61,595 bases of DNA from a virus: IMG/VR virus record IMGVR_UViG_3300049749_000001, positions 1 to 61,595 of that record; one strand, written 5' to 3'. Below the pieces are notes generated by a model, which did no database searches, was not told where the DNA came from, and saw nothing but the letters and a program-made list of their open reading frames with translations. How positions within the stretch are numbered: the stretch's first letter is position 1; every line of letters begins with the position of its first letter. A program made the translations under genes and the position numbers. Shown piece by piece: positions 3,101 to 53,677 of the stretch.

Positions 3101-6100
3101 CAACTACTTCTTTGCAAAAGCCGTCGACATGCTGCGCGACGGCGGAATTCTGATGCAGGTTGTGACGAGCTCCTTCATGGATGCCAAGCGCGACAAGGCA
3201 CGTAACTACATCGGGGAGCGTACTACCCTGCTAGGCGCTATCAGACTGCCCAACAGCGCATTTATGGGCAATGCCGGTACCGATGTTACAACCGATATCA
3301 TCTTCCTGCAGAAGCTACCGGAATCGCAGTGGAGTTCCAAGGTGGCGAAGGAGGACGCGCAACGCTGGCAGGGATTGGGCGAAGTCTTTGACCCGCTAGG
3401 CGGGGCAAAGATACCCATCAACCAGTATTTCGTGGATCACCCGGAAATGATGCTCGGCACCATGCAGCGCGTGGGCGGGCGTTATCACGAGGATATGCCG
3501 GGACTCGTGGCGCACCCTGGCAACGTCGGGAAAATGCTGGCCAAGGCGATATCGAAACTGCCCGCGAACGTGTACGTGGATATAGCCAAGGCCAATACCG
3601 GGGCAATGGAGGGCGCACTGGCGGAAGCCATGGCCAACCTGGACGTGGAAGTAAACGGCTATTTCGTGCGCAACGACAAGCTCTACCAGCGCGTGAACGA
3701 TATTGCCGGCGAACAGCGGGCAGTGTTGCTTACGCCCAATACGCAGTGGACCGAAAAACAACAGCTCGGGGAGAACAAGCACGCACGGCTCAAGAAAGTA
3801 TCGGAACTGCGCACCACCTTGCGCCAGTTGATCAATGCGGAGCGCAACGGCGACGAGAGCATGAAGGAGCTACGCGCCAAGCTGAACGAACAGTACGACG
3901 AGTTTGTGAAGGGCGGGCTGATACACGACAGGGGCAGCATCCAGCTATTCGGTGACGATCCCGATTTCCCCTTGCTCGCCTCCCTCGAGCGGAGCTACGA
4001 CGCGGGGATTTCAGAGGGCGCGGCCAAGAAACAGGGAATCAAGCCGGTCAAGTCATCCGCGAAGAAGGCCGACATTTTCACCAAGGCAGTTGTCAGCGTG
4101 CGTGAAGCCGTGGACAAGGCGGATACGCCCGTTGATGCCCTGATGATAGCCATAGCGGAGAAAGGCCGCATCGACGCGCCATTCATCGGGGAATTACTGG
4201 GACGAGACGGCGCGGAAGTGCTGGAAGAACTGACCAAGGGCGACGAGCCGGCACTGTTCAAGGATCCAGAGAGCGGCGGATACCTGCTGCGCGACGAGTA
4301 CCTTTCAGGGAACGTGCGCAAGAAGTACGCACTGGCGCAAGCGGCAGGCATGTACGACAACGCGGACGCCTTGAAGCGCGTGATACCAGAGGATATCCCC
4401 TCGCATGAAATCGTGGGGCGCCTGGGTGCGCCCTGGGTACCTTCGGAAGTCTACGAGGATTTCATTCGCCACATGCTAGGCGACCAGACCCAGGTGCAGG
4501 TGCGGTACGTGAAGGCACTAAGCAGCTTTGCGATTCAGGTGATGGAAGCCTCCGACGTGTCCAACTGGAACACCTACGGCGTGGCCGCATCGGGCGAGGA
4601 TAGACATGCCGGCAAATCCGCGGTGGAGATTATTTCGGCATTGCTCAATAACCGCCAGATAGCGGTACGCACAAGGCCGGACCGGGAAGGACGTACGGAG
4701 CTCGTGAAGGATGCAACGGACGAGGCCAACGACAAGGCGGCAATCCTGCGCGAGAACTTTACCGACTGGCTGATGCAGGATGCGGACCGTGCGGAGAAGG
4801 TGGGGCGCATCTACAACGACACGGTAAACAACTATGTAGAGCGCAAGTTCCTGGGCAACATCCTTAAATTCCCAGGCAAGGTACCCGATAGCATCATCAA
4901 GTTCCGGCGCCACCAGACCAATGCGATCGCTCGCATATTGCAGGAAGGGCGGGCACTGCTGGACCACGTTGTGGGCAGCGGCAAGACGTTCACCGTGATA
5001 GGCGCGGCACAGGAATTGAAGCGCACCGGGCTTGCACGCAAAAGCATGATCGTGGTACCGAACCACCTTGTAAAGCAGTGGGCGGCGGATTACTACAGGC
5101 TCTACCCGGGCGCGAACATCCTGGCAGCGACCAAGAAGGACTTTGAGCGGCAGAACCGCCGTCAATTCCTGGCACGCATCGCCACCGGCAATTGGGATGC
5201 AATCATCATCGCGCACTCGTCCTATGGATTCATCAAGCCGGATCCCAATTTCGAGGAACAGTTCAACTACGAAGTCATCCGGGAAATCATGGATGCAATC
5301 GCCGAGCTCAAGGGCGACGGCGCCACCGAACCGGATCAGGCCACCAAGCGCACCATCAAGCAACTGGCCAAGATGAAGGAGAAGCTGGAACAGCGCATCA
5401 AGTCACTGCGCGACAGGAACATGGATGCCCTGCTGGACCTGGGGCAGTTAGGCGTGGATCAGATTTTCGTGGACGAGGCGCACCTGTTCAAGAATCTGAT
5501 GTACACCACCAAGATGCAGAACGTGCGCGGGCTGAACAACCCGACAGGTTCGCAGCGTGCCTACGACATGATAATCAAGACTCGGCAGATCATGGCGGCG
5601 AACGGCCACCAGCGCGGCGTCGTGTTTGCAACCGGCACGCCGATATCGAACAGCATGGCGGAAATGTATCACATGCTGAGATACCTCTACCCTGACGGGC
5701 TGAGCGACATGGGGATGGAGACTTTCGACGCCTGGGCGAACTCCTTTGCGGAAGTGGAGCAGGTGTGGATGCAGTCGCTAACGGGCGCCGGATTCAAGGC
5801 AACAAACCGCATGAGCCGGTTCGTGAATGCCGCCGACCTGTTGAAAATGTACAACCAAGTTACCGATACCGTCACGCAGCGCGACGTTCAGGAAGCGTAC
5901 CGCGAGGAAAATGACGGTAAGGAATTTCCGTTACCGAAACTCAAGGACGGCAAGCGTACGCCGGTATCGCTCAAGAAAACGGCCGCACTGGCTGACTACA
6001 TGCTTGAGATTGCATCGCGTGCCCAAGCGGTAGAACAGCGCGGACGGCCACCGGAGGAGGGCGAAGATAACGTGCTCTCGATCATGACGGACGCCCGCAA

Positions 6101-9100
6101 GGCGGCGATGGATATGCGCCTCGTGGATTTAGACGCCACGGAGCGCGACCCGGAAGGGCGCATCGCCATGGCCGGCAAGGAAGTCATCGAGCGGTACCAC
6201 AAGTACCACGATGTACTCGGCACGCAATTGATTTTCAGCGACATGGGTACCCCCCTGAAACACGCCCGGAAGGAAATGGTGGAGTACGAGGCGCTACGCG
6301 CCACCATTGCGGCGGGAGCGGACCCGGATACCATTGCGCGCGCGGAATTGGGCGACGAAGCGGCAATGACCAAGATCGAGGAAGCGGAGAAAGCCCAGGA
6401 GACACTGGACGGCAAGGGGCAGGACTGGCTTGATGCGATCAAGGCCGCGATTCGCGGCTTTTCCATCTATGACGATATGCGGGCGTACCTGATGGAGAAC
6501 GGCGTACCGGAAAAAGAGATTGCCTTTATCCATGACTACAACACGGACGACCAGAAGGCGGCACTGTTCGCCGCGGTCAACGCCGGCAAAATCCGCATCC
6601 TGCTAGGGTCCACTGCCAAGATGGGCGCCGGTACCAATGTTCAGCAACGTCTCGTGGCGATTCACCATATCGACGTGCCCTGGAAACCCTCTGATATCGA
6701 ACAGCGCGAGGGGCGCATCATCCGCCAGGGCAATCTCTTTGCTACGCCACCAACCGAGGACGCGCCTAATCCGCTCTACAACCCGGATTTCGAGGTAGAG
6801 ATACTGGCCTACGCTACCCAGGACTCGCTGGACCTGTTCATGTGGCAGGTACAGGAAAAGAAGCTCGGCATGATCAACCAGCTACGCGAGGGCAAGGTAG
6901 GGCGCGAATTCGACAATGCGTTCGAGGAAATGCAAATGTCGGCCGGCGAAATGCAAGCCGCGGCAACGTCCAACCCGTACCTGATGGAAGAGATTGTACT
7001 TAAAGACAAGATCAAGAAATTGGAACGGCAACAGAAAAGCCATGTGGCGCAGGGCAACGACCTTATCACGCGGGAGAAGAAGGCACGCAAGGCGATAGCC
7101 GAACTGCCAGCGACCATCAAGGCGATGGAGAAGGTAGACAGCGAGGCGCGGGCTTACCACGCGGCGATGGAAGCGCGGGAAGTGCCCGCTACCATCGACG
7201 GCAAGCAATACACCAAGCGAGCCGCAGCGACCGCGTACATACGCGACATACTGGACGATCATCAAGAGCGGTACGAGAGGCAGGAAGCCGACAATTCCAT
7301 AAGGAAGCTGCAAGCCACCATAGACAATGCCCTGAACAAGACTGACAACGAGCCAAAGCTGGACGAAACGCTTTCCAAGAGCAAGCTCGCAAAGCCTATC
7401 AAGATCGACGGCAAGGATTACGTCAGTATCAGCGCGATTTCAGACCGCATCCGCATGATCTACGGTGACGCGGACCCCATTGCGTTCGAGCGCGGGGACC
7501 AGACCCTCTACACCCGCAGCGCCATCCGAGACGCCATCCGCGACGACTACGCCCGGGCGGTGGAAGAAGAAACCACCGTGCCGATGGGATCGTTCGGCAA
7601 TTTCGAGGTTTCGGTACTCGTCAAGAAAGCGCGGGACAAGAAAATGGAAATCGAGATTTACGCGCCGGCGCAACTCTCGGACGGTACCGACCTGGGATCA
7701 TATTATGTGGGCGAGTACCACGACAAGGTAGCGGCGCTACCCGATATCGACAAGTGGATCCGGGCGGCAAGCACGCACGCGCACGGCGTCGAGTGGTCCC
7801 TGAACAACTCACGCCGGGAACTGGAACAAGCGCACAAGACGATCAACGACCTTGGCAGGATGCCGGAGCGGCAGGAGTGGGCGGGCAAGGAAGAACTGGC
7901 GCAAGCCCGCGAGCGGTACCGCGAAGTGCTCAAGCTGATTGTCGCCCTGGCCAACCCGGCGCCGACAGTCAAGCCGGATGGAAAATACCATGTGATGCGG
8001 AAAGCGGAAGCGGCGCAAGCGATGGGCGGACAGCCCACGGATGAAGCAAAGGCCGACCCGCGGTTCTACGTCTGGACAGAAGGCATGATCCTGGTAGACG
8101 GTTCCAAAGACGGTTTCCCGACAGAGTTTGATGCGGGCGTATGGCTGGCCAGAAAGCAGGGCAAGCCCATTGCGGTACCGAGCCATACGGAAGCACGCCA
8201 CGGGCAAGGCATAGCGGGCATTACCAAGCTGCAGGACCGAACGCGAGCGGAAGAGCCGGCATTTTCCCGCCAACCCAAAAAAGCCACCCCCCCAGGTGGC
8301 TTTTCTGCTTCTGCGCTACCGAAAACGCACACCCAGGCAATCGTTGACGCCATCCGCGGAAAGTGGAAGAACGCGCCGGAGGTTGTCATCGTTGATGACA
8401 TGAACGATCCGGCCATACCGGGAGCCGTGCGCAAGGAGAACGAGCGCCAGCTATCCCAGGGCGCCAAGGGCGAGCCGGAGGGCTTCATTGCGGGCGGCAA
8501 GGTCTATGTAGTCGCATCGCAAATGCGAGCGCCTGGGGACGTTGTACGCGTGCTGCTGCATGAAAGCCTCGGACATTTCGGGTTGCGCGGGCTCTACGGC
8601 GCAGGACTGGACAAGATACTCCGGCAGATTGCCGCATTGCGGCGGAAAGAGGTGGAAGCCAAGGCACGCCAGTACGGCCTGGACATGAAGGTGGAGAAGG
8701 ACAAGCTCAGGGCGGCGGAGGAAGTGCTGGCGGAAATGGCACAGACCAACCCGCAAAGCGGCTTTGTCCAGCGTGCAATAGCGGCGATTCGGACATGGTT
8801 GCGCGAGAACATCGAATACTTCAAGGATATGAAGCTATCCGATGGCGAAATCATCAACAACTACCTGATACCCGCGCGGGAGTTCGTGCAACGGGGCGCA
8901 CCGCAAGGCGGGCAGGCAAGCGGCGTTACCGCATTCCAGCGCGTTTGGCACGGTACCCCGCATATCTGGCCACCGGAACCAGGTTTCGCGCATGGACGGC
9001 CACGGCTGGACATGATCGGAAGTGGCGAGGGTGCGGCGGCGTTTGGATGGGGATTCTATACCGCCGAATCCAGGCGCATAGGCGAGGAATATCACCGGAT

Positions 9101-20074: not shown

Positions 20075-20115
20075 TAATCTTCCATTGGTTTAAAAACGGG
20101 AGTCATAAATCAATA

Positions 20116-20159
20116 CCAGTTAATGCGGTTAACTACACCAGTTAACCCGGTTAACTACC
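20116..20159. repeat. Two tandem 22-bp units, each an AGTTAA-N5-TTAACT palindrome
   Basis: CCAGTTAATGCGGTTAACTACA followed by CCAGTTAACCCGGTTAACTACC, directly after iteron 1. Confidence 0.8.
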
Positions 20160-20173
20160 CTGTAAAAGTCGAG

Positions 20174-20253
20174 TTATCCACAGGCTGCATTAAGAATCTT
20201 TAATAAAAGGTTAAAGACTTTAGGTTAGAAAACGGTTAGCGGGTTGTGGATAA
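20174..20253. promoter_or_regulatory. Pair of inverted consensus DnaA boxes
   Basis: TTATCCACA at 20174-82 and TGTGGATAA at 20245-53, flanking an AT-rich stretch. Confidence 0.8.
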
Positions 20254-20461
20254 CCATGTATTCATTAATAAATTCAGCTACTTGCTGACATGCCTCCGGG
20301 AGTCATAAATCAATAGTCCGGGAGTCATAAATCAATACTTTCGGGAGTCATAAATCAATAGTCCGGGAGTCATAAATCAATAGTGCAAGATTCTGAAAAC
20401 AGCAGATTCATATCGGTTTCACATTAAAATAAGGTGCAAAACGGGAGTCATAAATCAATAG

Positions 20462-21409
20462 TTAGCAGACCGGCGTTTCAGCTCCTTTTCGGCGGACCAT
20501 GACTAATCCCTGTCTGCTTACCTCAAAATCTTCCAGGAAACCGGAATCCTTCAAGGCTTGCAATGCCTTGTTAATCAGTTTCTTTGCATCGCGCAGCCGT
20601 TCCTTGTGTTTGGCTGTGCGTGCCGTCTCGTCCAGTTCCGCATCCTGGGGCGCCTCGATCATCAATCCCGCGCCACTAGCCAACGTTTCGATGCGCACAG
20701 GGTAAGGTTCGCGGTGTGATGCGTAGTAGGCGTGCAACCACGTTGCCATTCCTTCAGGAAGTGAAAGCCGGCGTTGCCATTCAACCCGGGTGTATTGGAA
20801 TTCCGAGAACAGGAACACGAGCTCGTCGTGCATCCGCACTGTCCATAGACCGCCATCGCCATCCTTGCGGCGCTTGGCGTGGTAGCCTGGAAGCATGGAC
20901 AGGGATAAATCCTCGTTCAGACGTTTACTGGCTATCTTCAAAGACGTGGCCTGTAGCCGTGTCATGCACTTGTCCAGGCGGTCATAGCTCTGTCCAGTGA
21001 CAGGCCACTCGATAGCCTTGCAAAAACTGAAAGGGGTAAAGTGAAACGGCGTGGCTAGTCCGTTTTCGCGGGCAAGGTGGATAAGTTGCAGCCATACGGT
21101 TTCATCATCCTGGCGGAGTTCTTCGCCGGTGTAGGTTATCTCGCCCTCCCCTATTACAGCGACAACGGCGCGTTTCAGGTCCGCCCGCGGCTGCTTTCGA
21201 TTCTTGACGGTGAACAATGCAGAACGAACAATCTCATTCGGGATCCCGCGCAGTCCTTCCGCCCAAAGGGTCAATTGCTTGTTGGATAGAAGCTCTGCCC
21301 GTTTGCCGTCCCGTGCCGTTTTCTTTACGCGTTCGCCAATTTCGCGGATGGAATCGGCGCTAGATTTCTTCGCGGGTTTGCCGCTGTCCTCTTCTGCTTT
21401 TTCAAGCAT
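20462..21409 (-). CDS. trfA: TrfA-family plasmid replication initiator
   Basis: The blocks GIPNEIVRSALFTVKNRKQPR, ITYTGEELRQDDETVWLQLIHLA, RLQATSL and SHREPYPVRIETL parallel the RK2 TrfA blocks as I recall them. The adjacent iterons support the call. Confidence 0.85.
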   Translation of the reverse strand: MLEKAEEDSGKPAKKSSADSIREIGERVKKTARDGKRAELLSNKQLTLWAEGLRGIPNEIVRSALFTVKNRKQPRADLKRAVVAVIGEGEITYTGEELRQDDETVWLQLIHLARENGLATPFHFTPFSFCKAIEWPVTGQSYDRLDKCMTRLQATSLKIASKRLNEDLSLSMLPGYHAKRRKDGDGGLWTVRMHDELVFLFSEFQYTRVEWQRRLSLPEGMATWLHAYYASHREPYPVRIETLASGAGLMIEAPQDAELDETARTAKHKERLRDAKKLINKALQALKDSGFLEDFEVSRQGLVMVRRKGAETPVC

Positions 21410-21573
21410 CGTTATTCCCCTGGTTGTCGTATCCTTTTCGTATTAATACCTATGCAATACATACGAAAGTAATATCTTTTTAGTATGAATATGGTGCCCC
21501 TTGACTCAACCCCGCCCGTGCAAGGTGTAAACCGGGCAGAGTAAATTCTTATCTTGCCAAGGGGCGTAACTCT

Positions 21574-22406: not shown

Positions 22407-22670
22407 TTAGTCTTTTTCAATCCAGTGCTCCAGGGCTCGGTAGATTGCAAGGTTGATGAGACTGGCGCGGGTGTTGCCAGTTTTCCTCGCCATCGCATCG
22501 AGTTGGTCTAAAATCTCCGGGGAGATGGTATGGCTGATCTGTATCCTGTTCCCTTTCATGAAGGCTTTCTTCGGCTTTGAATCCGGTGCGCCTTCCTCAA
22601 ATTCCGTTACTTTCGTCGGTACAACGTCAGGTATTTTCGGGTCCAGCTTGGGTCGCGGTGTAATAGCCAT
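22407..22670 (-). CDS. Ribbon-helix-helix partition/regulatory protein (ParG/CopG-like)
   Basis: KGNRIQISHTISPEILDQLDAMARKTGNTRASLINLAIYRALEHW is an RHH fold signature. It lies immediately downstream of parA. Confidence 0.7.
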   Translation of the reverse strand: MAITPRPKLDPKIPDVVPTKVTEFEEGAPDSKPKKAFMKGNRIQISHTISPEILDQLDAMARKTGNTRASLINLAIYRALEHWIEKD

Positions 22671-22686
22671 ATCGTATCAATCTCCA

Positions 22687-23373
22687 TTAAGACGATACTA
22701 AATTCATATCGGATGGATATGAAAGCAATACGGCAAGCAACTTACTGAATTCCGCCCTTGCCTTCGGGTCCGCCTTCTTCATTTCCAGCACAGACAACCC
22801 CTGGCCAGCAGCACTCGAAAACGCCTTGCGCCGCACGAGGGGCGTATCAATGTATTCAAACTGCGGAAATGCGCTCAGTTCTGCAATGGCTTGCTCGTTA
22901 TCGGCTGCGCGAACGTCCTCGCTTGGATCCGGGTCGGCGGTATTCAGGACTGACAGCACGGGGAAATGTTCGCGTGCGCCGCGTGCCTCGTCCACCAATT
23001 CGGCCATTTCCTCCATTGCCCACACTTCAAACGTACGCGGCACGAACGGCATGAGCACCTTGTCCGATAGCATCAATGCCACGCGAAAGGCGGATGAATC
23101 CCGCCCGCCCGCGTCGATGATCACATCATGGAACTTGTGCGCCTGCAGCTTCACCTGGGAGCGAAGCAACGGACCTTCCGTGTACGTGGCGCACGCGATA
23201 CCGGGGAGGGTTTCGTCCTGGGCTCTCACGGCGATTGCCATCTGCGAGGTTTTCTGCCGGTCCGCATTGATCAGCCATACGTCGCGCCCTTCGCGGGCAA
23301 GTGCCGATGCAATGCTGACAGCGAGCGTGCTCTTGCCTACGCCGCCTTTGGTATTCCCTACGGTGAGTATCAT
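22687..23373 (-). CDS. parA: ParA-family partition ATPase (small, type Ib-like)
   Basis: Deviant Walker A in ILTVGNTKGGVGKSTLAVSIA. 228 aa with no N-terminal HTH. Confidence 0.9.
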   Translation of the reverse strand: MILTVGNTKGGVGKSTLAVSIASALAREGRDVWLINADRQKTSQMAIAVRAQDETLPGIACATYTEGPLLRSQVKLQAHKFHDVIIDAGGRDSSAFRVALMLSDKVLMPFVPRTFEVWAMEEMAELVDEARGAREHFPVLSVLNTADPDPSEDVRAADNEQAIAELSAFPQFEYIDTPLVRRKAFSSAAGQGLSVLEMKKADPKARAEFSKLLAVLLSYPSDMNLVSS

Positions 23374-28995: not shown

Positions 28996-30060
28996 ATGGT
29001 TGGACCTATCGAAACATATCCCCTCAATCACTGCTACGCAGGTGATAGCCGCGTCACGCTCAAGCTCCTTGAGCCTTGCAGCGTGCAAGTTTGTGTCACG
29101 TCACCCCCCTATTACGGGTTGCGTTCGTATCTTCATGATACTCATCCTTATAAAAACCTTGAAATCGGTGGGGAAAAGACGCCGGATGAGTACGTCGCGG
29201 CGCTGGTCGAGGTTTTCCGGGAGGTTTGGCGCGTGTTGCGGGACGATGGCACGCTCTGGCTGAACCTGGGAGATAGTTACGCCGGCACAGGCAAGAGCGG
29301 CGGGGGAGCTCAGGGCAGGCGATGGGAAGAGTGCGGGATGGATACTACCGGAGCTCGAGGAGGCAAATGGATGCCGCCACCAGCAGGGCTCAAGCCGAAA
29401 GACTTGATCGGTATCCCCTGGCGCGTGGCATTTGCACTACAGGCGGATGGCTGGTACCTGCGGCAAGACATAATCTGGCACAAGCCCAATCCCATGCCGG
29501 AGAGTGTCACAGACCGATGCACCAAGGCACACGAGTACCTGTTCCTGTTGAGCAAATCCCCCAGGTACTACTTCGATAACGAGACGATAAAAGAAGCGTG
29601 CGCCCTGCAGGAATACAAGACGCCGGATGGATGGGATACCAGCAAGGGGGAGGGCGGGCACGGCCCATTTCACAAGAATGGCCGCGAGAAAGGCAAAACC
29701 GACAAGCAACGCGGGCATGGCCGCATCTATACCGGGTTTAACGAGCGATACGACGCCAAAGAAGCGGCGCAGCAGTTAACCGGCACTCGCAACAAACGGA
29801 GTGTTTGGACGATCCCAACGCGCCCGTATGCACAAGCCCACTTCGCAACATACCCCCCTGAACTCATCGAACCCTGCATTTTGGCCGGCACTCGCCCAGG
29901 CCAGATCGTACTTGACCCCTTTTTTGGATCCGGCACCACTGGCGAAGTAGCGCAACGCCTGGGGCGCCGGTGGATTGGCTGTGAACTTAACCCTGAGTAT
30001 GCCCTTTTACAAAATGAACGGACCCGCCAAGACGGGTTTGCCTTGGAGACGATGGAATGA
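28996..30060 (+). CDS. Stand-alone DNA methyltransferase (N4/N6 class, beta order)
   Basis: Motif IV VCVTSPPYYGLRSY comes before motif I LDPFFGSGTTGEVAQRLGRRWIGCELNPEY. Confidence 0.85.
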   Translation: MVGPIETYPLNHCYAGDSRVTLKLLEPCSVQVCVTSPPYYGLRSYLHDTHPYKNLEIGGEKTPDEYVAALVEVFREVWRVLRDDGTLWLNLGDSYAGTGKSGGGAQGRRWEECGMDTTGARGGKWMPPPAGLKPKDLIGIPWRVAFALQADGWYLRQDIIWHKPNPMPESVTDRCTKAHEYLFLLSKSPRYYFDNETIKEACALQEYKTPDGWDTSKGEGGHGPFHKNGREKGKTDKQRGHGRIYTGFNERYDAKEAAQQLTGTRNKRSVWTIPTRPYAQAHFATYPPELIEPCILAGTRPGQIVLDPFFGSGTTGEVAQRLGRRWIGCELNPEYALLQNERTRQDGFALETME

Positions 30061-30890
30061 ACTACTACGCGCACCACCTGGGCGATTATGCGGAAGCAAC
30101 CGCCCATCTGAGCTTTCTTGAAGATGCGGCATATAGCCGTCTCATCCGCAAATACTATGCGACAGAAAAGCCGTTCCCATGTGACGTCAAGACCGTACAG
30201 CGACTCGTGGGTGCGCGGACGAAAGAGGAGCGGGAAGCGGTGGCAACTGTGCTTGCCGAGTTCTTTGTTCTTTACCAGGGGTCGTTTCACAACACCCGAT
30301 GCGACAGAGAGATTGCTGCTTACCGCGACAAGCAATCCAAGGCGAAACGTAGTGCGGATAGCCGATGGAGTGCAACCAAAACGCCAAGCGAAGGCAATGC
30401 GAACGCAGTGCCAACGCAATGCGAAGGCAATGCTAACCAAGAGCCAATAGCCAATAGCCAAGAACCAGAACCAAAGACGGAGGTTATACACACAGAGTTA
30501 GATACTCCCCGCGACGAGAGCGATCAACCGGAAGGCGCGTGTTTACCTCCAGACCCGGTTAAAACGACAGAAGCAGGGCTTTGCTGCAAGGCAATAATGA
30601 ATCAGGGCGTGCAAGGCGGAAACCCAACCCATCCGACCCTGATTGCCTTGATCGAAGCCGGCGCCACTGAAACCGAGTTTGCCAATGCCGCAAGGGATGC
30701 CGTGACACGGGGACACCACAGTTTTGCGTACGTTGTCGGGATCGTGAAGCGGCGGCGTGAAGAAGCGGCAAAGATGGTGCTGCACCAGGGGCGATTGCCG
30801 AACAAGCAAGAGGCGCTTGAAGAGGCGAACAGGCGAGTAGCGGCCGCGTGGATGCCGATAGAAATGAGGGAGGCGAGAAATGCAGTCTAA
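30057..30890 (+). CDS. DUF1376/YdaU-like replication-module protein
   Basis: MNYYAHHLGDYAEATAHLSFLEDAAYSRLIRKYY is the characteristic N-terminus. There is an ATGA overlap with the MTase gene. Confidence 0.6.
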   Translation: MNYYAHHLGDYAEATAHLSFLEDAAYSRLIRKYYATEKPFPCDVKTVQRLVGARTKEEREAVATVLAEFFVLYQGSFHNTRCDREIAAYRDKQSKAKRSADSRWSATKTPSEGNANAVPTQCEGNANQEPIANSQEPEPKTEVIHTELDTPRDESDQPEGACLPPDPVKTTEAGLCCKAIMNQGVQGGNPTHPTLIALIEAGATETEFANAARDAVTRGHHSFAYVVGIVKRRREEAAKMVLHQGRLPNKQEALEEANRRVAAAWMPIEMREARNAV

Positions 30891-39446: not shown

Positions 39447-39469
39447 GAAAGGAATATCAAAACGATATG

Positions 39470-48153: not shown

Positions 48154-48695
48154 TGGAGTTGGTGCTTTCCATGTCTCTTGAAACCGCACAAGTAGCCTTC
48201 CGAGTGGCCGTTGCCACCATCGCCATTACCGGCTCTACCGTTGTAGGGCTGGCACTCGATGAAAAATACGTGGGTGAAGCCATGATTCCGGTCAAGGGTG
48301 ACAAGTGGACGAATGGCTACGGCACCACGACAGGCGTAAAGAAGGGCGACAAAACCACGCCAGAGCGTGCCTTGGTGCGACTGATGGGCGACCTTGAGGA
48401 CATATACGCGGCGGGTATACGCAAATGCGTTACCGTGCCCTTGTACCCGCATGAGTTCCAGGCATATTTGCGACTCACATATAACGTAGGGGTGCCCACC
48501 TTTTGCCGCAAGGCAAAGCCGGATCCAGTGACCGGCAAGATAGAACCTAACCTGATCGACTTGATTAATACCAAGCGGTACGCCGAGGCTTGCGTGCGCA
48601 TCGAGGCGTTCAAGTACGGGCCGGGGCGCGTGGTCTATCCGGGACTCGTCAAACGCCGTGCGGAAGAGCGCAGGATTTGCGAGGGGCGGGCGTGA
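48153..48695 (+). CDS. SAR-type endolysin (GH24 lysozyme)
   Basis: Weakly hydrophobic N-terminus AFRVAVATIAITGSTVVGLAL. The catalytic block is EAMIPVKGDKWTNGYGTT. The C-terminus is GLVKRRAEERRIC. Confidence 0.8.
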   Translation: MELVLSMSLETAQVAFRVAVATIAITGSTVVGLALDEKYVGEAMIPVKGDKWTNGYGTTTGVKKGDKTTPERALVRLMGDLEDIYAAGIRKCVTVPLYPHEFQAYLRLTYNVGVPTFCRKAKPDPVTGKIEPNLIDLINTKRYAEACVRIEAFKYGPGRVVYPGLVKRRAEERRICEGRA

Positions 48696-50728
48696 GCGCC
48701 GTTCGTATCGCCGGATTCTCCGGCGTAGTCCCCAGGCTGGCCAAGCAGTTGCTTGCGCCGAATCAGGCGCAGATAGCCACCAATGCGATATTGACCTCCG
48801 GCGACCTTCGCCCCAGGAACGGACCCCTGCTGATCTTCAATCCCATTATCGAGAACGATATCGTCTCGATGTTCAGGATGGAGAAGGACGGCAACGAGAA
48901 GTGGCTGGCGTGGGATAAGGACGTCGACGTCGCACGCTCGCCAATCGCGGCCAATACCGAACGGCGTTTCTACTACACCGGCGATGGCGAGCCGCGTGTA
49001 TCGGAGTTTGACATGGCAACCGCGGGGGTTGGTCCCTATCCCGCGGCAAGCTACGTGTTAGGCGTTTCCCCTCCGGTCAATAAGGCAGTGGTAGCGCCAA
49101 CGGGCGGCGCCGGCGCGGACGTGACAAGGATCTACGTTTATACCTTTGTCACCGCCTGGGGGGAAGAATCCGCCCCATCGCCTGATTCCGTGCTGACAAC
49201 CGGCAAGACGGACGGCACCTGGGACATATCCGGCATAGATTCGCCGCCGTTGAATTCCGGTACCGTCACCAACGCGGTCAAGGACTCGCCAAGCGTGGGT
49301 TATGTGACCGTAACGCTCAATAGCGTTTATGGCATACGAGCTCACGAGGAAATCACCTTTGACGCGGTAGCGGGCATGACTGACATTAACGGTACCTTTC
49401 CGCTTGTCAGCGTGGATCCGGGTACCAATACCGTCGTGCTGCTGCTATCCACTACCCAAACTTACACGGCGGGCGGCACCTGGGACCGCGTTGCGCCGCA
49501 CAACACCTCGAGCATGACCAAGCGGATATACCGCACGCTCACCACTGCAAGCGGTACCGAGTACCACTATGTCGTTACCTTGGCCGGGACAGCCTCAACT
49601 TACAGCGACACGATGAGCGACGAGGATATCGCCCTGGCTGAAGTATTGCCTTCGGCCAAGTGGCTGATGCCACCGGCGAACATGAAGGGCATTGTGATTC
49701 TGCCAAACGGGATTGCGTGCGGGTTCTTCGGCAACGAGGTTTGTTTTGCCGAACCGTTCAAGCCCTACGCGTGGCCGGCGGCTTACCGACAACCGTACGA
49801 CCAGGACATAGTTGCAATCGGGATCACGGGCACTACTCTCGTGGGAATGACGGAAGGCAACCCTTTCACGATCACGGGCGTTGAACCCGTGACGATGGGC
49901 GGCGGTATGGAAAAGCTCGCCGTGGCGTGGCCGTGCATGAGCAAGCGGGGCGTGGCGAGTTTTGCCTTCGGCGTTGGGTACCCGGCGCCCCAGGGTCTAG
50001 TCATCATCGGCATGAGCAGCGACGTGGTAACAAAAGACCTGTTCACGCAAAAGGAATGGGCGGAACTCAACCCGGCGACGTTCATTGCCGCCACTGGCGA
50101 TAACCGTTACTACGCGGGGCATGAGGTCGCCGGCAGTTCGCTCATGTTCGTCATCGACAAGGCGGAAGCCGCATCCTTCATTACCGTGAACCAGGGCATT
50201 ACAGCGATATGGACGGACCCGGCAACGGGCAAGCTGTACGTTGCTATCAACAAGAAAATCTACCAGTGGGAGGGCGATGTAGGCACCAAGCTCGCCTATG
50301 AGTGGCGCAGCAAGCAATTTGTCTATCCGTTGCCCATCAACTATGGCGCCGCCAAGATCGACGCGGATTTTGGCATGACGGAAGCCGAACAGGAGGCAAC
50401 CCAGGCAACGTATGACGCCGCAATCGCAGCCAATCAGGCAATGATTACGGGCGATGCAATGAATGACGGCCTTGCGGACCCGTATCTCGGTGAATACGAG
50501 ATAGGCGGGGATGCCTTGCCAGTGATTCCGGCACTCGTCATCGACTCCCTGCAGTTCCAGCTATGGACAGATGGCCGACTCAGGTACACGAAACAGGTAG
50601 AGAACACGCGCGGCTTCCGGCTTCCTGCTGGCTACAAGTCAGACAACGCGGAGATTGTGCTATCGGGCAACGTCAAGGTAGCGGGCGTAGTGATTGCCGA
50701 GACTATGGACGGCCTGAAAAGCGCATAG
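48692..50728 (+). CDS. Large virion (tail-associated) structural protein (678 aa)
   Basis: ORF 48590..50728. Start moved to GTG 48692, which overlaps the endolysin stop (GTGA). No enzymatic motif. Confidence 0.6.
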   Translation: MSAVRIAGFSGVVPRLAKQLLAPNQAQIATNAILTSGDLRPRNGPLLIFNPIIENDIVSMFRMEKDGNEKWLAWDKDVDVARSPIAANTERRFYYTGDGEPRVSEFDMATAGVGPYPAASYVLGVSPPVNKAVVAPTGGAGADVTRIYVYTFVTAWGEESAPSPDSVLTTGKTDGTWDISGIDSPPLNSGTVTNAVKDSPSVGYVTVTLNSVYGIRAHEEITFDAVAGMTDINGTFPLVSVDPGTNTVVLLLSTTQTYTAGGTWDRVAPHNTSSMTKRIYRTLTTASGTEYHYVVTLAGTASTYSDTMSDEDIALAEVLPSAKWLMPPANMKGIVILPNGIACGFFGNEVCFAEPFKPYAWPAAYRQPYDQDIVAIGITGTTLVGMTEGNPFTITGVEPVTMGGGMEKLAVAWPCMSKRGVASFAFGVGYPAPQGLVIIGMSSDVVTKDLFTQKEWAELNPATFIAATGDNRYYAGHEVAGSSLMFVIDKAEAASFITVNQGITAIWTDPATGKLYVAINKKIYQWEGDVGTKLAYEWRSKQFVYPLPINYGAAKIDADFGMTEAEQEATQATYDAAIAANQAMITGDAMNDGLADPYLGEYEIGGDALPVIPALVIDSLQFQLWTDGRLRYTKQVENTRGFRLPAGYKSDNAEIVLSGNVKVAGVVIAETMDGLKSA

Positions 50729-50741
50729 CACAAAAGGCGCC

Positions 50742-51009
50742 GGGTGAATAGGGTGAGGGGGTTCACCCCCAAGGGATCAGAGGGGTTCAACCCTTCTCGA
50801 ACACCGCATGAACAGGCGTTCCAGGGGTTCACCCCATAGGACGCCGGCATTTGGCTGACAACTATACATATCGAGGCTGACATGTATAGAAAACCGGACA
50901 TTCCTATACATATTTTTTGTTGCAGTGGGGAAAGTGGGAAAAGTGGGAAACGAGCAAATACGCCATTCCCCACCAGTTTCCCACCAGTTTCCCACCAGTT
51001 TCCCACCAG
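50742..51009. repeat. Repeat-dense intergenic region with three motif families
   Basis: GGGGTTCA(A)CCC occurs 3 times (50758, 50782, 50824). CTATACATAT occurs twice (50862, 50904) with an inverted copy at 50882-89. GTGGG(G)AAA occurs 3 times (50925-51), facing TT(T/C)CCCACCAG 4 times at an 11-bp period (50966-51009). Confidence 0.9.
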
Positions 51010-51029
51010 CCGCCACAAGCGGCTTTTTT
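51008..51029 (+). terminator. Intrinsic terminator immediately before the next tail gene
   Basis: AGCCGC-CACAA-GCGGCT followed by TTTTTT. It ends 13 nt before the ATG at 51043. Confidence 0.7.
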
Positions 51030-51042
51030 CATTCAGGCGCAC

Positions 51043-52551
51043 ATGGCTAATATTTACGTTCGCTCATCCGATGGCGATAACGCCGACTCCGGGGCGAGTT
51101 GGGCGCTGGCAAAGGCCACGCTTGCGGGAGCTGCTGCAATTGCGGTAGCAGGTGACACAATATATGTCTCGTCAGCGCATTCCGAGACGACCGCAGCCGC
51201 CATTGCCTTGACGTTCGCCAGCACGCTTGGCAACCCGGTCAGGATTCTGTCGGTCGATGACTCAGCCGAGCCGCCCACGGCGCTGCTGGCCGGTGCCACC
51301 ATCGCCACTACCGGCGCATCGAACATCACCACGTCGGGTTTCATCTACTGCGACGGCCTGCGCTTTCTATGCGGCGATGGTGCGAGTCTTGCGCAGATCC
51401 TTCTCGCCAACAACACCAACAACCTTCACAGATACCGGAACTGTTTTTTCTCGTTGCGAAGCACGATCACGACGGCGCACATTTATCCGGTCAACTCATC
51501 ATCGAGTTTGGGCGCAATTGCGGTGTGGGAAAACTGCACATTGAGCTTTGGCTCCAATGGGAATCGGCTGAAAATCCTCAATGGCAGGTTTTATTGGAAC
51601 GGTGGCGGGGTAACGTCAGTAACCGGAACCCCGGCATATCTTGTTGACCCCGGCGTGAATGTGACCATGCACTACGCCGAACTGAGCAACCTGGACCTGA
51701 GCGCCATCCCCACCACAACCAATCTGGTTGCGGTTGCAGGGGTGGGGATTACACGATTCAACGCCTGCAAACTCCCGGCAAGCTGGACCGGCAGTATTGC
51801 ATCGGGCACAAAAGTGGCCGGTGCGCGGGTAGAAGCATTCAATACCGATTCGGGCGATACCAATTACGGCGCGTGGATCGAGGATGGCTATGGGTCCATC
51901 CGGCAACATGCAACGCTCTACCTGTCCGGGACCAATGGCATAAAGCACAACGGCGCTGTCGTGCCCCTTTCCTACAAGATGACGGCGGAAAGTACCGCCA
52001 CTTACCCCTTCGGCCTTCTTGAAGGTATCTGGCGGGTATTCGTCAACGAATCCACTGCCTCCCAAACCATCACCCTTGAAGTTATCCACAACGACGCGGC
52101 GGCACTGACGGATGCGGATATATGGCTGGAAGCGGACTACCCGGCAGCAAGCGGCAGCACCCTGTTCACGCGCCTGACTGATGCCAAGGTAGACATTCTT
52201 GCGACCGCAACCGCGCAGGCCACATCGACAGCCGATTGGGACGATGGGCTGACAGAACGGGCGAATAGCACCGCTTACACCTTGGGCAATCTCATCAAAT
52301 CTTCCGGCACTCCCGGCAGCGCCTTTATCTGCACGGTGGCGGGCACCAGTGCGGCCAGCGTTCCAGCGGGATACACAGGCGCAGCCGATGGCGATGCGAT
52401 CACGGATGGCACCGCGACCTTCAAGGCCATGCGCAGGCAGAAGTTGACTGTGACCCTCACGGCGGCAGAGCAGGGAATTATCCGGGTGCGGCCAGTGCTG
52501 GCGAAGGCAAGCGCCATTGTTTACACAGCGGCCAAGCTGGCGGTGGCGTAA
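51043..52551 (+). CDS. Second beta-helix-type tail protein (502 aa)
   Basis: MANIYVRSSDGDNADSGASWALAKATLAGAAAIAVAGDTIYVSSAHSE is typical of right-handed beta-helix tail proteins. The ORF-track start at 50917 lies in the repeat region and was rejected. Confidence 0.6.
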   Translation: MANIYVRSSDGDNADSGASWALAKATLAGAAAIAVAGDTIYVSSAHSETTAAAIALTFASTLGNPVRILSVDDSAEPPTALLAGATIATTGASNITTSGFIYCDGLRFLCGDGASLAQILLANNTNNLHRYRNCFFSLRSTITTAHIYPVNSSSSLGAIAVWENCTLSFGSNGNRLKILNGRFYWNGGGVTSVTGTPAYLVDPGVNVTMHYAELSNLDLSAIPTTTNLVAVAGVGITRFNACKLPASWTGSIASGTKVAGARVEAFNTDSGDTNYGAWIEDGYGSIRQHATLYLSGTNGIKHNGAVVPLSYKMTAESTATYPFGLLEGIWRVFVNESTASQTITLEVIHNDAAALTDADIWLEADYPAASGSTLFTRLTDAKVDILATATAQATSTADWDDGLTERANSTAYTLGNLIKSSGTPGSAFICTVAGTSAASVPAGYTGAADGDAITDGTATFKAMRRQKLTVTLTAAEQGIIRVRPVLAKASAIVYTAAKLAVA

Positions 52552-52709
52552 TGGACCGTCAATGGATCGTGGACGGTGCATTGATTCAGGAACACAGCAC
52601 GCACCAGTACGTCGCAGAGGGCGTGCTTATTCAGGACACGGCCATCGCGTTCAATGTCGCGTGGGCGCGGAATGCAAACGCAATAATCACCACCGGGACG
52701 GTTAAATGA
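52551..52709 (+). CDS. Small hypothetical protein (52 aa, below the ORF-track cutoff)
   Basis: Hand-translated as MDRQWIVDGALIQEHSTHQYVAEGVLIQDTAIAFNVAWARNANAIITTGTVK. It has a TAATG overlap upstream and an ATGA overlap downstream. Confidence 0.45.
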   Translation: MDRQWIVDGALIQEHSTHQYVAEGVLIQDTAIAFNVAWARNANAIITTGTVK

Positions 52710-53350
52710 GGAAGAACGGGGCGGGGCAGATTGTAGGCGCTCAAATGAGTTCGTCCATGGACGGATCAGACTTTACCGGCGCGGTAACGTGCTACGTGAC
52801 CGGCGATGGCGGCACGCAGGCGGCAGGTTCGGTAGGGTCCGGCGCGTGTGTTCACGAGGGCAATGGATTCCATACCTACGCGCCCGCGCAGGCCGAGACC
52901 AACTATGACCATGTGGCTTTCACTTTTAAAGCGGCTGGCGCGGTAACGGCAACCATTCAGGTTTACCCGAATTTCCCGCAGACGGTAGACATTCAGACCC
53001 GGCTTCCTGCGGCGCTGGTTGGCGGGCGCATGGATAGCAACCTGTCCGCCATCGACAACTCCGCAACAACGCTTGCAGCCTTCACGCGTGCCGTCAAAAC
53101 CAACGTCATCGGCACCGTAGGGGTGGGTTCCACCCCTACGAGCATTGTCACCGCATCGTTGACGCCTGCCGGTTCCGTGGCCGACCAGTTCAAGGGTCTT
53201 TTGATCAAATTCGCGGACGACACGACCACGGCGGCATTGAGAGGCCAGGGCACGACGATCACCACCAACACCGCATCGGCCACCCCTACATTCACCTGTA
53301 CGGCGCTTACGACCCCGCCGGTAGCGGGCGATTCCTTCGTCCTGCTGTAA
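52706..53350 (+). CDS. Hypothetical virion protein (214 aa)
   Basis: Closed ORF in the tail module. Confidence 0.6.
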   Translation: MRKNGAGQIVGAQMSSSMDGSDFTGAVTCYVTGDGGTQAAGSVGSGACVHEGNGFHTYAPAQAETNYDHVAFTFKAAGAVTATIQVYPNFPQTVDIQTRLPAALVGGRMDSNLSAIDNSATTLAAFTRAVKTNVIGTVGVGSTPTSIVTASLTPAGSVADQFKGLLIKFADDTTTAALRGQGTTITTNTASATPTFTCTALTTPPVAGDSFVLL

Positions 53351-53677
53351 ATGGCGATCACACGGGCAGGATCGAGCGGCTTTGCAGCAAGGCCGCAAGG
53401 CAGCTTCGCCGGTAAAGGCGTAGTCGTCGACGTATTCTTGCCCGAAACCGGCCCAACGACAGGCAAGAAGCCGGGGATTCCGGCAGACGCGCCGGCATGG
53501 CTCAAGACCATGTTGGAAATATTGACCGGACGGCGCGGCAACCAGATTGCGATCCCTGCGCCGCGCGTGCTCACCTTTTCCGCAGTGCCGACAAAAGAAG
53601 AATGCGAAGCCCTCTATGCCTTGGTCAACGAGGTCCGGGATACACAAGCAAAAATCATTACGAGGTTCGATTCGTGA
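53351..53677 (+). CDS. Hypothetical virion-module protein (108 aa)
   Basis: Closed ORF. Its start abuts the previous stop. Confidence 0.55.
   Translation: MAITRAGSSGFAARPQGSFAGKGVVVDVFLPETGPTTGKKPGIPADAPAWLKTMLEILTGRRGNQIAIPAPRVLTFSAVPTKEECEALYALVNEVRDTQAKIITRFDS

Follow-up and report, generated by a model that had tools for sequence, protein, structure and literature searches.

What is the role of a 314-bp stretch of densely repeated, non-coding DNA between two late genes of a phage? The question is raised by the IMG/VR record IMGVR_UViG_3300049749_000001, which was analysed over its whole length of 61,595 nt (hereafter the window), and in which an initial annotation had described the spacer at 50729–51042 as holding three motif families, facing repeat arrays and a hairpin. 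The window has a terminal overlap of 127 bp and is complete as a viral record; it belongs to a Bcep22-like podophage of Nitrosospira, which has plasmid genes as well (TrfA/oriV, a pair of ParA and a ribbon-helix-helix (RHH) protein, and a small serine recombinase of 210 amino acids (aa)); its relatives include prophages within Nitrosospira and Nitrosovibrio genomes. In the reading that we favour, and to which we give about an even chance, the spacer is the untranslated, hairpin-rich tail of a late transcript, a patchwork built by recombination and slippage that ends in a conserved terminator.

The terminator and the fold of the transcript

The motif families, facing arrays and hairpin are all present, as found by direct inspection and, for the repeat arrays, also with Tandem Repeats Finder (TRF). 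We refer to them as blocks A to D:

50743–50757, + strand: start of block A, GGGTGAA (50743–50749) and GGGTGAG (50751–50757), inverted partial copies of TTCACCC
50758–50835, + strand: core of block A, three direct copies of GGGGTTCAMCCC (50758, 50782 and 50824; repeat search)
50853–50915, + strand: block B, GGCTGACA twice (50853 and 50875) and CTATACATAT in the order direct, inverted, direct (50862, 50880 and 50904; repeat search)
50925–50951, + strand: left array of block C, GTGGGGAAA, GTGGGAAAA and GTGGGAAAC, i.e. GTGGGRAAA three times with a period of 9
50966–51009, + strand: right array of block C, TTCCCCACCAG followed by three copies of TTTCCCACCAG, i.e. TTYCCCACCAG four times with a period of 11 (TRF, 100 % matches)
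51008–51029, + strand: block D, an intrinsic terminator consisting of AGCCGCCACAAGCGGCT and TTTTTT (stem 51008–51024 with six pairs, five of them G-C, and a loop of 5)

Counted over the whole window genome, the repeat motifs occur above chance and are confined to the spacer, with three matches each for GGGGTTCAMCCC (0.5 expected) and CTATACAT (0.48 expected) and with seven of the ten genome copies of GTGGGRAA lying inside it. The same 314 bp are found, without a difference, in an independently assembled Logan contig that matches the window at 100 % over 7,037 bp, and the repeats are therefore not an assembly artefact. That nothing coding explains the region was borne out as well: five open reading frames across the spacer gave zero protein-family matches, a tRNA search of the spacer found none, and Rfam 15 gave no covariance match at the gathering score, the best being isrK with 17 bits against a threshold of 50 (E 0.51).

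The evidence that carries the favoured reading begins with block D. Its T-run ends at 51029, 13 nt before the ATG at 51043, and the predicted stem (ΔG −9.7 kcal/mol) and T-run agree with the annotated terminator that overlaps the last repeat. A hairpin with a T-run was found at the same junction in 24 distinct sequences, i.e. in the window phage and 23 relatives, and is built from several different stems, such as AGCCGC/GCGGCT, CGCCCAG/CTGGGCG, ACCGCTC/GAGCGGT and AGCTGCCC/GGGCAGCT. Across the junction spacers this is the one recurrent feature, and it stands directly before the next ribosome-binding site. A fixed position combined with varying stems would be the signature of a functional intrinsic terminator.

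Block D is also one of four strong + strand terminators of the late operon, which lie at 39469 (after the portal gene), 41886 (after the capsid gene), 47319 (before the lysis genes) and 51008, and such a series would imply that late transcription is controlled by attenuation or antitermination. The gap between block D and the next start codon is too small for a promoter; therefore, the genes that follow, i.e. the downstream cassette, further virion proteins and a giant gene, would have to be expressed via read-through. On the + strand of the spacer itself no sigma-70 promoter was found, the sole weak match being on the − strand within the palindrome of block B.

In the T7 phage, Tφ is a terminator after the major capsid gene, and repetitive extragenic palindromic (REP) hairpins stand between the genes of Escherichia coli operons. 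The junction resembles this type of punctuation in that a GC-rich hairpin with a T-run comes right after a highly expressed structural gene and right before the next ribosome-binding site, and in that block D is conserved in position, variable in its stem, one of a late-operon series and preceded by more hairpins. It differs in the 280 nt before block D, which are unusually long and contain three unrelated repeat families, two of them common to different relatives and one unique.

As an RNA, the whole spacer folds on the + strand with a z-score of −5.6 against shuffles. Blocks C and D account for a well-defined structure, in which left units 1–3 pair with right units 4–2 to give a 25-bp hairpin of three segments, directly followed by the terminator hairpin (ΔG −46.9, z −5.9; the minimum free energy structure makes up 28 % of the ensemble).

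A fold of this kind might also be read as a functional RNA of its own: block C and the terminator, about 105 nt together, would then be a small RNA (separate or derived from the 3′ untranslated region), an RNase III site, or a cis element by which termination at block D, and with it the dosage of cassette and giant gene, is tuned. The very stable and well-defined fold and the position of block C directly 5′ of the conserved terminator speak for it. Its prospects suffer, however, from the absence of a sigma-70-like promoter upstream on the + strand, from a best Rfam match, isrK, that stays below threshold, and from relatives that have terminators without block C. Moreover, block C is without homologues, so that no covariation test is possible, and its internal variants, GGGG in the left unit that lies outermost and CCCC in the right unit that lies innermost, do not compensate each other in the predicted hairpin. 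We consider such a role rather unlikely.

A patchwork at the edge of a variable cassette

How such a spacer could have arisen is best approached from the junction itself, which was compared across 45 related loci. The genes around it are:

48692–50728, + strand: upstream gene, 678 aa, a Bcep22 gp67-like virion-associated or internal virion protein (phrog_511, E 5.7e-154)
51043–52551, + strand: first cassette gene, 502 aa, with no family match and also no phage-database match
Terminator to about 53497, where the conserved acetyltransferase gene lies: variable cassette, 2.3–3.1 kb across relatives

The stop codon of the gp67-like gene forms the 5′ edge of the spacer, and its protein shares 34–36 % identity with Bcep22-group proteins and 70–77 % with those of the 45 Nitrosospira prophage and viral loci. 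Beyond the junction, similarity in these loci returns only at the acetyltransferase gene, 2.3–3.1 kb downstream, and which family of gene comes first behind the junction differs from one group of relatives to another. With a conserved gene upstream and a variable one downstream, the spacer therefore marks the 5′ edge of a swappable cassette. In Bcep22, the genes after the equivalent one encode a small virion protein, an acyltransferase and further virion proteins, and the giant gene comes next. The description of the spacer as lying between two tail genes holds only loosely, as the upstream gene is virion-associated and not strictly a tail gene, and the downstream gene is one of the variable cassette without family match.

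Homologues of the 502-aa gene (75–77 %) follow other upstream genes, without the 314-bp element. Most junction spacers measure about 20–155 nt, the shortest in relatives about 20–55 nt, and the spacer is 42 nt long and free of repeats at a locus where gene order is the same and the first cassette gene 75 % identical. Short or repeat-free spacers in relatives thus argue that the 314-bp element is dispensable.

Parts of the element do occur elsewhere. The layout of block A, i.e. three times GGTTCAMCC with the stretch CCGCATGAAYAGG(G)CGTT, makes up the entire spacer of four relatives (L009, L010, L011 and L029), which reads as three copies of GGTTCACCC plus CCGCATGAATAGGGCGTT; in the window, CCGCATGAACAGGCGTT lies at 50804–50820, between the second and third copies of GGGGTTCAMCCC. 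A partial block A is present in L022. Block B is homologous to the spacer of L006, which has three copies (alignment score 32, against a maximum of 26 in the shuffled null), and is also the spacer of a group of loci with two copies (L004, L005, L007, L008, L024 and L038). Its inverted CTATACATAT copy at 50880–50889 gives rise to the hairpin CTATACAT-N12-ATGTATAG, and the block as a whole consists of two overlapping inverted repeats, i.e. a 28-bp unit of 12-4-12 layout (50862–50889) and a 30-bp unit (50882–50911), with a T-run after them. The 28-bp unit reads CTATACATATCG-AGGC-TGACATGTATAG and matches at 10 of the 12 arm positions; across variants, one stem pair of block B, read by eye, appears as A-T, G.T and G-C. 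When viral contigs were scanned with loose patterns for blocks A and B, most matches were chance or unrelated ones. Extra copies of GGTTCACCC and TGTACAGA in the genomes of relatives are single and lie inside coding genes; they were rejected as functional sites and taken as chance.

The picture for block C is a different one. Its right array is the inverted complement of the core of the left array, with the last unit overlapping the terminator stem. A 19-mer of block C was absent from the viral contigs scanned, metagenomes gave only unrelated short matches of two to three copies, and six Nitrosospira genomes gave no significant match. One contig of 2.4 kb (L054), which stems from a different sample in the same study series, shares 99.4 % identity with the window over 51008–53379, and the point of divergence is precisely the first base of the terminator stem; within the 17 nt that it covers upstream of the terminator, the arrays are replaced by unrelated sequence. 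The comparison suggests population heterogeneity exactly at the spacer. Metagenome scans for the terminator with its leader and for the junction of L054 gave zero matches. In relatives, the sequence before the terminator is present as a single copy, i.e. TTCGCACCCA in L040 and ACCAG in L003, L015 and L022, and matches the array unit, which suggests that the array arose by local tandem duplication. Judged from sequence comparison, block C is best read as young and lineage-specific.

Three other candidates for the origin or use of this DNA were tried and rejected. The cassette as an invertible segment failed for want of a long-range inverted repeat flanking it. A mobile repeat of the host, such as REP elements or miniature inverted-repeat transposable elements, was dismissed after six Nitrosospira genomes had shown no significant match beyond the terminator, viral contigs none, and metagenomes only unrelated ones. 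A Chi cluster was considered because the right array reads CTGGTGGGAAA on the − strand, i.e. one exact GCTGGTGG and three copies of ACTGGTGG; the octamer is unenriched (a genome count of 3 for GCTGGTGG against 2.6 expected), and RecC (PF04257) was detected in none of four Nitrosospira and Nitrosovibrio genomes (G001–G004), with a positive E. coli control, so these hosts are probably without RecBCD.

Side observations were made at other junctions and contigs. The L049 spacer (6046–6479) extends over 433 nt at the same junction and holds an apparent decayed copy of the small first cassette gene of L012 and L016, the start of which resembles VAKYVHSDVLDGGLNAI; this seems to be further evidence for turnover at the boundary. 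The spacers of L013 (about 6031–6266) and L012 are similar except for about 80 bp that are inserted in one of them, just upstream of the terminator. Some junction spacers have short repeats or hairpins of their own, such as CAGTTTGC...GCAAACTG in L003 and L036 and AGCAACTGTAAG twice in L043. In two unrelated metagenome contigs (L244 and L252), a run of CCCACCAG(TTT) units stands right behind a stop codon, with TTTCCCGCCACGCGGGAGGGAAA after it; this is a different element that has the 11-mer in common by chance.

Based on these comparisons, the favoured reading can be put as a sequence of events. Blocks A and B would be spacer pieces that relatives carry singly and that were joined through recombination at the cassette boundary. 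In block C, the native 11-bp TTYCCCACCAG just 5′ of the terminator would have been tandemly duplicated to form the right array, and an inverted copy of its core, duplicated at a 9-bp period, would have formed the left one, presumably via slippage or template switching. Late transcripts from the virion-protein gene would then traverse blocks A to C and fold into a stack of hairpins, the largest being the interrupted 25-bp hairpin of the arrays. Many of them would probably end at block D, while polymerase that reads through or is antiterminated would go on to express the cassette, the virion proteins downstream and the giant gene. For the upstream message, the hairpins may serve to protect its 3′ end or to mark it.

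The mosaic boundaries of temperate phages offer a precedent. As there, the spacer lies exactly at the meeting point of conserved and variable sequence, its pieces are common to different relatives with different cassettes, and a 99.4 % identical cassette is joined to other upstream sequence precisely at the terminator. The difference is that, in a single genome, several fragments of junctions seem to have been stacked, with local tandem amplification in addition.

Some observations weigh against the favoured reading. Blocks A and B alone fold weakly, with z-scores of −2.0 and −0.8, and in block A it is GGTTCACCC that is kept across lineages and not the mini-hairpin, a pattern of conservation that would fit sequence recognition better than folding. 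The near-perfect units of the arrays could reflect selection rather than youth. Finally, words shared with the region upstream of the recombinase gene, described below, would point to a common DNA-binding protein or a common origin and not to a purely RNA role.

A possible link to the serine recombinase

The initial annotation had also named recombinase accessory sites among the possible functions of the arrays. The recombinase and its upstream region are found at:

15669–16301, − strand: small serine recombinase gene (PF00239 at 2.6e-34, and HTH_7)
16302–16446, − strand: recombinase-upstream region, with direct and inverted TGTATAGA-type repeats and GGGTGTAG repeats

The closest solved structures to this recombinase are the Tn3 and γδ resolvases and the Gin invertase. 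In its upstream region, TGTGTATAGAAA and CGTGTATAGATA form direct repeats, TATAGACACATG is a partial copy in inverted orientation, and GGGTGTAG(A)GCC occurs twice; an alignment with the upstream regions of four relatives reveals a res-like series of TGTCA/TGACA half-sites, in which GTCAGAA of the relatives corresponds to GTATAGA in the window phage. Two parts of the spacer share rare words with it. TGTATAGA has three copies in the genome, two of them upstream of the recombinase gene (16389 and 16401) and one in block B (50883). The start of block A includes TGAATAGGGTG, the core of which, AATAGGGTG, recurs once in the genome, upstream of the recombinase gene, and AATAGGGYG is found at two genome sites, 16433–16441 (−) and 50747–50755 (+). 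Taken together, the start of block A and block B have 13 8-mers in common with the recombinase-upstream region, a number that none of 2000 dinucleotide shuffles reached, while twelve other spacers had 0–4; the common words are collinear between both regions, on opposite strands. No 8-mer is shared between the arrays of block C and the recombinase region. The proposed recombinase connection therefore gains partial support for the start of block A and for block B, and none for the arrays, to which it had been applied.

It is tempting to speculate that the start of block A and block B are a second target of the recombinase, or the relic of one, in addition to a primary res-like site just upstream of its own gene. 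If the site were active, recombination between the two inverted sites would flip a 27-kb arc with the cassette, the giant gene, a toxin-antitoxin pair and the recombinase gene; if it were a relic, it would record that a recombinase module once stood beside the cassette, as gin and cin stand beside the invertible tail-fibre segments of Mu and P1. In addition to the collinear words beyond all shuffles, with TGTATAGA twice upstream of the gene and once in block B and AATAGGGTG once per locus, the 28-bp inverted repeat at 50862–50889 has a 12-4-12 layout, as in serine-recombinase sites (inverted half-sites of about 12 bp with a short centre between them, 26–34 bp overall), and crossover site I of the res sites of Tn3 and γδ is 28 bp long. 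The recombinase-upstream region, with its direct and inverted repeats, is unstructured as RNA (z about 0), as expected of a protein-binding site. Furthermore, the window, G007 and G008 all have block A, and each encodes a member of this recombinase family (64 % identity).

Relatives do not bear the link out, however. In neither G007 nor G009 is the recombinase-upstream region significantly similar to the junction of the same genome, G009 has the recombinase and no block A, and the metagenome-assembled genome holding the block B locus L038 is without a close recombinase homologue. A profile hidden Markov model of the four relatives' upstream regions matched neither site of the window, a result without power since the window's own recombinase-upstream site was missed too. 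Both loci are crossed, in the arrangement of the window, by two Logan contigs of a single run, which break elsewhere, so that no inversion polymorphism is visible, and block C has no similarity to the recombinase region. The link is thus real in the window genome and not general among relatives, and we regard a role of the start of block A and block B as recombinase target or relic as possible but unlikely.

A comparison with the res and hix sites of Tn3/γδ resolvase and of Gin, Hin and Cin leads to a similar balance. Block B is like them in its 28-bp inverted repeat with 12-bp arms and in half-site words that recur upstream of the phage's own resolvase/invertase gene. It differs in its distance of 27–34 kb from that gene, in the lack of a partner site at the other end of the cassette, in that no inversion is seen in contigs, and in a similarity that is not reproduced in relatives. 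The stronger version, in which the junction is a second inverted recombinase target that flips or exchanges the 27-kb arc from the host-range cassette with the giant virion gene, the arrays perhaps serving as an accessory or architectural site, appears quite improbable to us. If true, it would mean a recombinase-driven rearrangement switch at a cassette boundary far from the recombinase gene, and would tie the boundary of a host-range module to a resolvase/invertase of plasmid type; this is the one thread that might lead towards something new.

Partition, replication and packaging

Do the facing arrays, with their periods of 9 and 11 bp, nevertheless serve as a protein-binding platform, i.e. 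as a centromere, a pac site or a secondary origin, as first proposed? The comparison does not support it: the arrays are unique, they are replaced in L054, and relatives make do with short spacers.

In the first of these roles, the facing GTGGGAAA arrays would be the centromere, or one of several dispersed ones, bound by the RHH partner of ParA (22407–22670) for partition of a plasmid-prophage. The phage does have a type Ib-like ParA with an RHH pair, RHH partition proteins usually target short tandem units of 7–11 bp, such as those found here, and the parA/RHH genes are without an adjoining repeat array, with only a 9-bp inverted repeat, TTTCATAGT-N27-ACTATGAAA, in the parA upstream region. 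ParA is also absent from two near-complete provirus relatives, and the arrays are unique to the window phage, a correlation with n = 1. In the phage-plasmid N15, centromere sites lie far from the partition genes, some of them among late genes.

In type Ib systems, operator and centromere normally share a repeat, whereas GTGGGRAA is absent from the parA promoter region. Nor are the arrays found in L054 just upstream of the terminator, although terminator and cassette are kept there at 99.4 %, or in a 17-kb sister fragment with a 100 % identical ParA, which does not cover the tail region. This fragment is the only other record of the ParA/RHH pair and ends short of the tail region. Another tandem palindrome, beside oriV (20116–20158), is an alternative candidate. 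Compared with the RHH-bound centromeres of R1 (parC), TP228 (parH) and pSM19035 (parS) and with N15, the likeness lies in tandem units of 9 and 11 bp in a phage with ParA and RHH; the spacer repeat differs in being absent from the par promoter and conserved in no relative, and in that its two arrays are oriented towards each other, right next to a terminator. Nothing positive supports the arrays as a centromere, a role that we consider very improbable.

Two side observations concern the sister fragment (G013). In the comparison of window 22407–23373 with L264 and L270, ParA is 100 % identical and the RHH partner only 90 %, and a different replication unit replaces trfA-oriV (window 20076–21411).

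A function of the spacer as pac site or secondary replication origin is harder still to credit. It would draw on a general resemblance of short tandem repeats to iterons and to the repeats bound by TerS, and on iterons of the GGTTCACCC type that exist in O-like replication genes of unrelated phages. The element is missing, however, from relatives that have the same structural genes, and is thus no conserved essential cis site. Pac sites are usually located in or near terS, and terS of the window phage (35195–35842) is 15 kb away. As to replication, a TrfA oriV, with six iterons and two DnaA boxes, is already present in the genome at 20.09–20.46 kb beside trfA, as is a second array, of 11-bp units, inside a replication gene (30380–30445), while the spacer has no adjoining initiator gene, DnaA box or AT-rich unwinding tract. 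According to a paper on JC1 of the Bcep22 group (PMC9144972), Bcep22-like phages are circularly permuted headful packagers, and a term search of that paper found no mention of a spacer of this kind. Both roles are not supported, we give them next to no credence, and it is unlikely that the spacer is essential for replication or packaging.

The array at 30380–30445 is an 11-bp periodic run of about five copies of AACGCAATGCG inside a ‘primosomal/replication’ gene (30057–30890). The sister fragment aligns at 97–98 % on both flanks and not across 30068–30424, and the array looks like an origin inside an initiator gene that may have been swapped together with its iterons. In eight unrelated phage contigs (L100, L116, L128, L152, L167, L057, L160 and L173), iterons of 19–22 bp read GGGTGMA-N4-5-GGTTCACCC; at least the set in L100 sits inside an O-like replication gene, with a DnaC-like gene after it. 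Such GGTTCACCC iterons in O-like genes of unrelated phages say nothing about the spacer.

If the favoured reading of a hairpin-rich transcript tail is true, the spacer would be an ordinary though ornate case of terminator punctuation in a late operon, combined with sequence turnover at a mosaic boundary. It would also show that conspicuous repeats with a helical period need not mean an origin, a centromere or a pac site. For the Bcep22-like phages of Nitrosospira, position 51008 would be the exact 5′ breakpoint of an exchangeable cassette, which is useful for their annotation.

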